Shown here piece after piece: positions 37,304 to 38,350 of a stretch of DNA of 40,733 nucleotides (the first letter of the stretch is position 1; the number at the start of each line of letters is the position of its first letter). A program made the position numbers and the translations under genes. Location of the stretch: the IMG/VR virus record IMGVR_UViG_3300045988_138709; one strand, given 5' to 3'. The notes beneath the pieces were generated by a model that worked only from the letters and a program-made list of their open reading frames with translations, was not told the origin of the DNA and did no database searches. This DNA comes from a virus (lineage: Duplodnaviria; Heunggongvirae; Uroviricota; Caudoviricetes).

Positions 37304-37339
37304 CCGTAGCACGTCGTATGCAAGAAGATCGTGCTGCGG
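37304..37339. repeat. Hairpin-forming repeat, copy 1 (10-bp stem, 16-nt loop)
   Basis: CCGTAGCACG-TCGTATGCAAGAAGATC-CGTGCTGCGG directly after the pin stop; near-identical second copy at 38317-38350. Confidence 0.6.
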
Positions 37340-37361
37340 TTTATGCTTATCACTTAAAGAC

Positions 37362-38135
37362 TCAAAAATTAGGTGAGTAACGGACCGGGGACATAGCTCC
37401 TTTTTTTCTTAATTCATCTGGTATTTTTTTTCCAAGATAAAGATTTGCTATTTCAGGTGGGGCTTCTCGACCTTCAAAACCATAGCGAGAACTTTGTGTT
37501 GCCTCAAAGTCCGGATCCTCGTCCCAGTATTTCATCGTAGGGAAATTTTCACGTGTTGATTTGAGCCATTTATCAGCAATGAAAACCCCTCGAACGATCC
37601 CCCTTACAGTAGCAAGAATGACTTCTGCTTGGCTGGCGCGAGAGACATTAATGCGCCAGCTAAATCGAACCGCATCATAAAGCTCTGAATCCTTTGCACT
37701 TCTGTTAACGGAAATCATTAATGCTTTATGATGAAATGTTATGGTTTCGGGTTGATATGTTGCTATCAACTCTTTGACATGCGCGGCGCCGAATTCATTG
37801 CTGCCAGCACCATTTATGATATTCGTTAACCCAGGGTAGGCATCAATAAGTGCTGCTTCAACTTCGTACGCCGTCTTTTCATCAGTCATTCCATGTCGAT
37901 GGATGACATGGATAACTTCAAGTCCCGCTAATCTTATTTCTCTGATTTGCTTTAGCTTGTTGCTCAGTAACTCGTCATCATCAGCCGCTGCCACTTCACC
38001 GCGCATATGAGCAAATACGCGGTTACCTTTGCCTTTCCCTACATAGAAGGTGCTTCCGTCCCTAGGATCAATCAATCGGTATACATACCAGCCAAGGTGT
38101 TCAATTACTCCAGAAGGAAACTCAGTAATATCCAT
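37362..38135 (-). CDS. GIY-YIG-motif nuclease-like protein with unassigned C-terminal domain
   Basis: Start at internal ATG (MDITEF...); ...[29 protein letters not shown]... fits the GIY...YIG...R pattern; no partner gene in operon. Confidence 0.65.
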
Positions 38136-38316
38136 TTTGCAATATCTGTGAATTATTTGTGAGACGTATATTAATGAACATTGCAAGGGCTCACAACTAG
38201 TAGTGTTGAGAAAGCCATCGGGAAAATGAGGCTAACCCTTTGAATTTACATAGCGCAAAAAGATACCTTTCCTCATAATGTGAGCTAATTTTATGTTTCG
38301 TTTGATGATCGGGTCG

Positions 38317-38350
38317 GTCTCGAAACCCGTAGCCACGTCGTATGCAAGAA
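38317..38350. repeat. Hairpin-forming repeat, copy 2
   Basis: CCGTAGCCACG-TCGTATGCAAGAA-CGTGCTACGG; same orientation as copy 1, so the two bracket the GIY-YIG gene. Confidence 0.6.

Follow-up and report, generated by a model that had tools for sequence, protein, structure and literature searches.

We analyzed a 40,733-nucleotide (nt) stretch of viral DNA (Caudoviricetes; IMG/VR record IMGVR_UViG_3300045988_138709; hereafter the window), in which a minus-strand gene with a GIY-YIG nuclease motif lies between two copies of a ~35-nt hairpin-forming repeat. The window is a prophage integrated at thrW, with a tRNA-Thr(CGU) gene at 115-190 and, next after it, a phage tyrosine integrase at 205-1368, and E. 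coli strain 90-1 matches it at 100% over positions 36711-38750. Its late region closes with baseplate genes of the Mu type and a tail-fibre segment that can be inverted, and the final gene of this rightward block, the serine DNA invertase gene pinE, has a TGA stop codon (37299-37301) that overlaps the base of the first hairpin. The bracketed gene and the features that follow it are collected in Table 1. The gene is already known, and the hairpin-ended look of its surroundings is explained by the repeated use of one terminator family in a cargo hotspot.

Table 1. Features of the bracketed locus, in positions of the window.
Feature	Position	Strand	Remarks
pinE serine DNA invertase	36741-37301	+	Pfam Resolvase and HTH_7; RefSeq pinE in the identical strain 90-1
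Hairpin 1	37301-37342	both	left arm 37301-37313, loop 37314-37329, right arm 37330-37342
PD-T4-3/CMoRE gene	37362-38135	-	NCBI start, 257 amino acids; longest open reading frame reaches 38186
Cassette 5' region	38136-38314	-	putative own promoter of the gene
tRNA-Ser (serU) anticodon-arm relic	38315-38329	+	CGGTCTCGAAA, then CCCG; right edge of the cassette
Hairpin 2	38327-38360	both	putative terminator hairpin ending the next leftward unit; T-A type in both arms
SL-A stem-loop	38363-38407	-	stem GGCTGG/CCAACT (+ strand), near-invariant ~31-nt loop
seg, conserved non-coding	38408-38521	-	extents from BLAST; common to lambda (between ea31 and ea47)

The PD-T4-3/CMoRE gene and its hairpins

The product of the bracketed gene matches the PADLOC PD-T4-3 model PDLC04031 with an E value of 9.6e-140 (residues 1-256 aligned to positions 1-255 of the 256 in the model) and phrog_5356 over its full length. 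Moreover, it aligns without gaps to PDB 9U75 (E value 3.9e-172, 4 mismatches over 257 amino acids, ~98% identity) and is likewise ~98% identical to PDB 9U8D, both of which are structures of E. coli O157:H7 CMoRE; 9U7U and 9U7Z are further CMoRE structures. The motif GWYVY...FYVGKG...R is found in the translation as L14 G15 W16 Y17 V18 Y19 R20...F30 Y31 V32 G33 K34 G35, with Y17, Y19 and Y31 placed as previously described (PMC12923530); the catalytic Arg and Glu are likewise present, and the AAADDDELL acidic loop and the entire C-terminal half align with the crystallised protein. The two proteins thus share the single-gene architecture, the tyrosines, the acidic loop and the C-terminal sensing domain, and beyond the four amino-acid substitutions relative to 9U75 they differ in nothing substantive. 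In Pfam, the only family matched is LEM-3_GIY-YIG.

CMoRE is a structurally solved and biochemically characterised type IV restriction enzyme directed against DNA containing 5-hydroxymethylcytosine (5hmC) or glucosyl-5hmC (ghmC), in which an N-terminal GIYxY-YIG domain degrades the DNA and a C-terminal domain recognises the modified bases (PMC12923530). Its homologues cleave 5hmC- and ghmC-containing DNA and protect against T-even phages (PMC12923530; bioRxiv 2024.12.20.629700), they are active when expressed from native promoters or upstream DNA (PMC12923530), and CMoRE activity has also been seen in a native host (bioRxiv 2024.12.20.629700). By its near-identity to this already-characterised enzyme, the window gene is assigned to PD-T4-3/CMoRE, with a predicted function in defence against T-even phages that is carried over from the 98%-identical protein. 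The sequence-only reading, an earlier note made from the letters of the window, had considered a stand-alone defence nuclease and a mobile-gene or homing endonuclease; the full-length model match and the ~98% match to the CMoRE structures bear out the former, which is already established, and the latter is not supported, as the enzyme recognises modified cytosines and not a homing site. For annotation, the appropriate label of the locus is PD-T4-3/CMoRE, rather than mobile-element or homing endonuclease. The name PD-T4-3 reportedly goes back to the selection of Vassallo et al. 2022.

The region upstream of the gene would hold its promoter. By eye, we found a weak candidate with an 8/12 match (-35 TTGTGA at 38196-38191, -10 TAATAT at 38173-38168, 17-nt spacer), while a promoter consensus scan flagged nothing in 38136-38314. 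The region belongs to the 977-nt cassette interior described below and is conserved with it.

Reading and folding the sequence confirmed two same-orientation hairpin copies of ~35 nt around the gene. Copy 1 is CCGTAGCACG-TCGTATGCAAGAAGAT-CGTGCTGCGG at 37304-37339, with a stem that reaches 37301-37342 when its AAA/TTT extension is included, and copy 2 is CCGTAGCCACG-TCGTATGCAAGAA-CGTGCTACGG; the latter had been placed at 38317-38350, 10 nt too far to the left, with an end that removes its right arm. The two hairpins share an exact 17-mer, CACGTCGTATGCAAGAA (37310-37326 and 38334-38350), and with up to 3 mismatches just these two matches occur in the window, compared to a chance expectation of 0.10 (two matches were reached in 1/100 shuffles). 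Predicted folding energies on the plus strand are -22.5 kcal/mol for hairpin 1 (z -4.7) and -20.5 kcal/mol for hairpin 2 (z -2.0), and on the minus strand -16.3 and -16.5 kcal/mol, respectively. Hairpin 1 ends 19 nt from the PD-T4-3 stop codon, on its downstream side, and hairpin 2 starts ~190 nt upstream of the start codon and is contiguous with SL-A, as at more than 60 other loci.

A cassette with constant edges

Of 5426 complete E. coli genomes, 853 carry the 977-nt interior of the cassette (37345-38321), nearly always in full and with 96-100% identity. In 579 E. coli genomes its left side adjoins pin, and its right side reaches a second hairpin in just 166/853; in the remaining ~80%, the cassette ends at the tRNA gene serU or in a loop-truncated hairpin that precedes a Dcm/restriction endonuclease (REase) pair. 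For example, in BS90R-A and SW07096 the homology spans precisely window positions 37301-38345, and the cassette is preceded by a tail-fibre assembly pseudogene belonging to an ssrA prophage and followed by a Dcm/type II REase pair. Among 79 IMG/VR loci carrying the gene, the left contexts were pin, the tail-fibre assembly gene tfa or a tRNA-like core, and the right contexts were serU attR, hairpin 2 with SL-A, or the truncated hairpin with Dcm/REase; 8 of the 9 possible pairings of left and right context were observed. The PD-T4-3 cassette is therefore a real recombination unit with constant edges, and in this respect the discrete cassette proposed from the sequence, the gene with its flanks, is upheld behind pin, the tail-fibre assembly gene and the tRNA-like core alike. 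The counter-evidence named beforehand, related prophages that carry the gene without the repeats, is seen in part: most gene-bearing genomes have no second repeat, and 166 do.

Related prophages also provide the single-repeat empty site that had been predicted. In ECOR29, a sister prophage at the same paoD-side chromosomal site carries pinE, one hairpin and then SL-A and seg, with no gene between them, and its single hairpin is a hybrid whose left flank matches that of copy 1 and whose right flank matches that of copy 2. The same empty site was found in several IMG/VR loci (e.g. L012, L014, L051 and L059).

The left junction of the window carries a trace of exchange. Hairpin 1 is chimeric: its left arm (CCGTAG) is of the pin type and its right arm (CTGCGG) of the cassette type, so that the plus strand has a T.G pair and the minus strand a C.A mismatch. 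In a census of arm alleles, 67/71 hairpins lying between pin and PD-T4-3 were such T.G chimeras, all hairpins lying between tfa and PD-T4-3 (16/16) were Watson-Crick at the diagnostic position, and at pin-linked sites lacking the gene 11/12 of the left arms of T type were Watson-Crick there as well. This census places the left crossover inside the hairpin, in the ~27 nt that separate its two diagnostic positions.

The right end of the cassette always reads CGGTCTCGAAA(A)CC(G). In SEC470 and O157-type prophages, the cassette runs on from there into the 3' part of tRNA-Ser serU (attR), whose identity is confirmed by the K-12 annotation, and no second hairpin is present. In the window, identity to serU ends after 11 nt and hairpin 2 follows, with a microhomology, GAAA(A)CCG, common to the serU core and the hairpin 2 sequence. 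In E. coli genomes, the cassette breaks off on its right side at the serU relic or slightly further on, within the hairpin 2 loop.

A comparable arrangement is seen in ssrA-associated elements, where a hairpin stands immediately after the 23-nt 3' core of the transfer-messenger RNA (TGGTGGAGCTGGCGGGAGTTGAA followed by ACCGCAG; L001 8150-8210, and L027, L046, L049, L058, L063, L064 and L114). The base position of this join is identical to that between the serU relic and hairpin 2, which could point to junctions of tandem prophages or to a favoured site of joining.

These observations are best accounted for, with a probability of roughly 0.8, by a moron-type defence cassette that is stacked and shuffled by recombination at shared terminators, as opposed to a self-mobile element. 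The first cargo unit would consist of its own promoter region, the minus-strand PD-T4-3/CMoRE gene and hairpin 1 as a Rho-independent terminator, and its product would protect the lysogen by cutting the 5hmC and glucosyl-5hmC DNA of T-even phages. Hairpin 1 would end both pin, on the plus strand, and PD-T4-3, on the minus strand, and hairpin 2 with SL-A would form the 3' end of the next leftward unit, such that the two hairpins would be copies of one widespread terminator family and not dedicated recombination sites.

The bracket itself would then have arisen from two stacked prophage cargo ends. One of these, with the order pin, hairpin, PD-T4-3 and att(serU), is still present in O157-type prophages, and it may have been fused to a phage in which pin was followed by a hairpin, SL-A, seg and other cargo, the join lying at the GAAA(A)CCG microhomology of the serU core. 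The fused unit could subsequently have spread with the shared hairpin and the neighbouring homology as a short patch for RecA or a phage recombinase, and the chimeric hairpin 1 would be the footprint of this movement of the cassette between phages. A role of the hairpin as a homology patch is suggested by its being common to many phages, and experiments in lambda have shown that short, diverged homologies suffice for lambdoid mosaicism (PMC3945230).

Several points weigh against this model. Termination at either hairpin is read only from structure and position, the loops (13-16 nt) are longer than those of textbook intrinsic terminators, a consensus terminator scan flagged neither hairpin, and hairpin 2 has no good U-tract in the window (GGGTTTCGAG, minus strand). 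Furthermore, the loop and SL-A are conserved far beyond the needs of termination, and the module therefore probably has a further function. Among nine early prophage open reading frames (ORFs), no Rad52-like recombinase was recognised. For the right-hand junction two histories stand, joining at the microhomology and an integrase-mediated or tandem-prophage fusion followed by deletion.

The hairpin module and the alternatives

Hairpin 2 and SL-A together make up a structured module of ~100 nt. We gathered more than 60 distinct hairpin copies by a pattern scan of IMG/VR and by BLAST, and found that SL-A nearly always lies to the right of the hairpin and that in a subset of copies the conserved sequence continues for ~110 nt as seg, to ~38521. 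The right boundary of seg is sharp, with all sequences in an alignment of 19 contexts diverging to the right past ~38517-38521, and in the same alignment the candidate start codons of seg are not conserved.

In an alignment of 42 distinct module copies, changes on both sides of a pair were found in 60% (12/20) of the base pairs, namely 5/7 in SL-A and 7/13 in the hairpin. These changes amount to 62 cells with a both-side change, compared to 17 in shuffled alignments, and the covariation score was reached in 0/500 shuffles and was far lower in slid controls. The stems thus covary, and the loops are almost invariant. Several features mark the minus strand. G.U pairs in the hairpin helix number 70 on the minus strand and 12 on the plus strand (29 and 12 without the invariant pair), and most contexts have a minus-strand 3' tail rich in U, e.g. 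GGTTTTTCTTTTTTGC behind tfa. Hairpin 1 is followed on this strand by UUUCAUUUAU, and the tail in the tfa context is UUUUUCUUUUUU.

At many loci, the minus strand also carries an ORF of the DinI family (PF06183) whose end lies 28-47 nt upstream of SL-A, which suggests that the module is the 3' untranslated region (3' UTR) and terminator of these ORFs. On the plus strand, the hairpin comes directly after the stop codons of pin or tfa. From structure and position, the hairpin would act as a bidirectional terminator where the rightward late operon meets leftward units.

Among complete E. coli genomes, 56% (3065/5426) contain the module, and a single genome can have as many as 7 copies. It is found in lambda (at ~24.1 kb, in the ea31-ea47 interval, a short way downstream of the ea31-ea59 genes), HK97, phi80, phiP27 and many Stx phages; SL-A and seg elsewhere lie at L004 2535-2695 in lambda and at L130 2540-2599 in HK97, where the module adjoins sib and is preceded by a vestigial 3' end of pin. 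The sequence-only reading had held that bidirectional terminators recurring throughout the host genome without associated cargo would speak against a cassette, and in part this is the case, as a terminator-type repeat does recur in many contexts in these 3065 genomes.

The module is unannotated in RefSeq, and PGAP sometimes labels the region as a 'capsid protein' pseudogene. On the plus strand, the 3'-terminal helix of the Rfam family CssrB (RF02799; Shigella chromosomal sRNA B) matches the hairpin weakly, at 24-31 bits against a gathering threshold of 76 bits; the match is limited to the last ~40 nt, and SL-A and seg lie outside it. Across the window and four more loci, Rfam returned this partial hairpin match and no family covering SL-A or seg, and a literature text search for the loop sequences found nothing.

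Coding explanations of the module were examined and rejected. A frame that would make the hairpin the 3' end of a protein gene, ...RRMQERAAA(N/G)W(RSFDSASIE)*, has a stop 1-56 codons upstream at at least 30 loci (at most 34 codons away outside lambda) and no consistent start. A small minus-strand ORF (MQKIRKI...) running through SL-A and the hairpin has ATA in place of its ATG in several copies and a C-terminus that varies with the flank, and a tblastn search with three DinI-like proteins for a decayed dinI in seg returned only noise.

A relic of the hairpin and SL-A is also present in the core chromosome, in the ykgJ-ecpE spacer of K-12 RP437 (L131 12205-12300), followed by an apparent decayed 3' end of a dinI-like gene (...EWFNHE...). 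This relic probably explains why the module carries an 'attP' label in the GenBank entry of HK633 (L129 2505-2585), a label that looks doubtful.

The alternative that survives best takes the hairpin, SL-A and perhaps seg as primarily a regulatory RNA gene or a 3' UTR-derived small RNA (sRNA) similar to DinR; its recurrence at cassette borders would then be due to selection for this RNA, and termination and recombination would be by-products. We regard this as unlikely, and it would complement the stacked-cassette model and not replace it. The two covarying helices with their near-invariant loops, the position of the module at the 3' end of dinI-like genes, the sharp and constant boundaries of a ~200-nt unit in 19 contexts and the lack of a conserved ORF are all consistent with such an RNA, and DinR, an Hfq-dependent sRNA cut from the 3' end of Klebsiella dinI, provides a precedent that makes it plausible. 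DinR differs in being chromosomal and in its Klebsiella-specific seed, and no sequence similarity is claimed between it and the prophage module. Against a primarily regulatory role, the 19-context alignment revealed no conserved promoter upstream of the unit, a complementarity search against window genes gave only 9-10-nt matches, at the level of chance, and hairpin 1 occurs without SL-A altogether. Covariation is also weak outside the terminator and SL-A; for the full ~200-nt unit, RNAalifold found little of it there, and the sequences are too alike.

A stronger version of this idea, that the hairpin and SL-A (with the ~110-nt seg) constitute an undescribed functional RNA, possibly a 3' UTR sRNA of SOS-controlled dinI-like operons that doubles as a DNA-level cassette linker, seems to us rather doubtful. 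If true, it would mean a functional RNA of lambdoid and Mu-like-tail prophages that is carried by lambda itself and by more than half of E. coli genomes, and an integron-like cassette array that operates on general or phage recombination with no dedicated integrase, in which defence and virulence cassettes are stacked and exchanged. The covariation-supported ~100-nt module, which has no Rfam entry, is perhaps a by-product of more interest than the original observation and merits follow-up.

A far less probable alternative to stacking at shared terminators is an attC-like or otherwise site-specific cassette, in which the hairpins would be folded sites for an integron-type integrase, Pin or the prophage integrase. 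Same-orientation imperfect palindromes around single-gene cargo, three-hairpin arrays, an empty site that is exactly one hybrid hairpin and a left crossover that maps within the hairpin are what such a system would produce; in addition, two different att-core fragments (serU and ssrA) adjoin the hairpin at the same base position, and pin is adjacent in 579/853 genomes. However, there is no integron integrase or transposase, and the window encodes no tyrosine recombinase other than the phage integrase, which lies 36 kb away. By inspection, the attC core RYYYAAC/GTTRRRY is absent, and the hairpin ends ATGAAACCG... and ...CGGTTTATG do not fit it. The hairpin was likewise rejected as a crossover site for Pin, since it does not resemble the pix-type inverted repeats of the window (34690-34709 and 36666-36685; 20 nt, 95%, AAACCTTGGTTTGGGAGAAG), with AAACC alone in common, and matches no gix consensus with up to 3 mismatches; moreover, the cassette is also found without pin. 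Finally, the right junction lies at the tRNA relic and not in the hairpin, 80% of the loci have no second hairpin, and junctions of other cargo vary (a 270-nt tfa duplication in L021 and the loop-truncated hairpin before Dcm/REase). The attC-like or hairpin-ended element suggested by the sequence-only reading is not supported.

The least probable alternative is a homing-endonuclease-like gene, whose GIY-YIG protein would cut the empty hairpin site and be copied in by break repair, as with the Seg and Tev enzymes of T4: the GIY-YIG fold, a free-standing gene between conserved sequences with occupied and empty alleles, and the co-conversion of flanking sequence indicated by the chimeric hairpin would fit, but the protein is 98% identical to CMoRE, whose C-terminal domain senses 5hmC and ghmC and which degrades modified DNA with no specific site, Pfam found no DNA-binding domain of the NUMOD, IENR1 or HTH type, and unrelated cargo in the same hairpins (ea47, a methyltransferase, XRE/ImmA pairs and Dcm-REase) implies that the bracket is independent of this gene.

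Related systems and other cargo

The stacked-cassette model places the locus close to the morons of lambdoid phages, reportedly described in the comparison of HK97 and HK022 by Juhala, Hendrix and colleagues in 2000. As in a moron, a putative promoter region, one gene and a putative factor-independent terminator lie between genes that are adjacent in sister phages, the function would benefit the lysogen, and GC content is below that of structural genes: 0.42-0.44 in the cassette compared to 0.55-0.61 in the baseplate and tail genes, and 0.32-0.45 to the right of pin compared to 0.55-0.61 in the tail genes. Absence from a collinear sister phage at the same position is also observed (ECOR29 and IMG/VR loci). 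Unlike in a moron, the putative terminator is not private, being a copy of the hairpin family of the neighbouring units; with a terminator common to neighbours, stacked morons would end up bracketed by direct repeats.

Other known systems share part of this arrangement. The pin-mcrA pair of e14 and the defence hotspots of P2 and P4 prophages, reportedly described by Rousset et al. 2022, resemble it in occupying the same genomic slot and in carrying variable defence cargo flanked by conserved phage sequence, whereas the anchor here is an RNA-structured terminator module and not protein-coding core genes. Integron cassettes are similar in that single-gene cargo is separated by imperfect palindromes in one orientation and the empty site is one copy; they differ in that here IntI, attI and the attC core are lacking, the cargo has a putative promoter region of its own and faces the opposite way, and the junctions vary.

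Under this model, the locus is a countable example of how defence cargo may accumulate downstream of tail-fibre and invertase genes by the stacking of units with homologous terminators. A 35-40-bp hairpin would serve as portable homology and leave behind direct repeats resembling mobile-element ends, a pattern that can mislead cassette- or transposon-finding heuristics.

Brackets of the same kind surround other cargo. In lambda, a second, diverged hairpin stands right after tfa, such that ea47 is bracketed likewise. In the lambdoid IMG/VR contig L021 (10816-11890), a minus-strand S-adenosylmethionine (SAM)-methyltransferase gene lies between two copies of the last ~270 nt of tfa plus hairpin, of which the first hairpin has a short CssrB-type loop (CTTAAGCAA) and the second a GTATGCA loop. 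L046 and L058 hold three-hairpin arrays, in the order pin, hairpin, PD-T4-3, hairpin, XRE with ImmA-like genes (CapH/CapP-like) and, further on, an ssrA-core hairpin. In e14 of K-12 (L127 4092-5031), the modification-dependent nuclease gene mcrA is next after pinE, and no hairpin copy follows pinE there. Different type IV restriction genes, mcrA in e14 and PD-T4-3 here, are thus found in the same post-invertase slot.

In lambda, Ea31 (L004 2848-3738) has a full-length match to PDC-M01B, a candidate defence protein in PADLOC (E value 6e-113), Ea59 is annotated as an AAA ATPase, and the lambda b region looks like a defence-cargo array with the same terminator module. The tfa region of lambda (L004 655-853) also has a strong match to the Rfam family IS009 (RF02111, 224 bits).

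In the window itself, the ~2-kb invertible segment beside pinE, which is bounded by the pix-type repeats, codes for alternative C-terminal ends of the fibre and contains two oppositely oriented tail-fibre assembly genes, and with pinE it is a classical host-range switch of the Pin/Gin type. Two more low-GC cargo genes lie at 38735-39259 (plus strand) and 39529-40455 (minus strand). Searches of Pfam, NCBIfam, PADLOC and PHROGs assigned the 174-aa ORF of this pair to no family. The 308-aa ORF matches PDC-S64, a PADLOC candidate, with its N-terminus (E value 2e-16), has a further match to phrog_20824 and CxxC pairs in its C-terminal part, and may be another defence gene.

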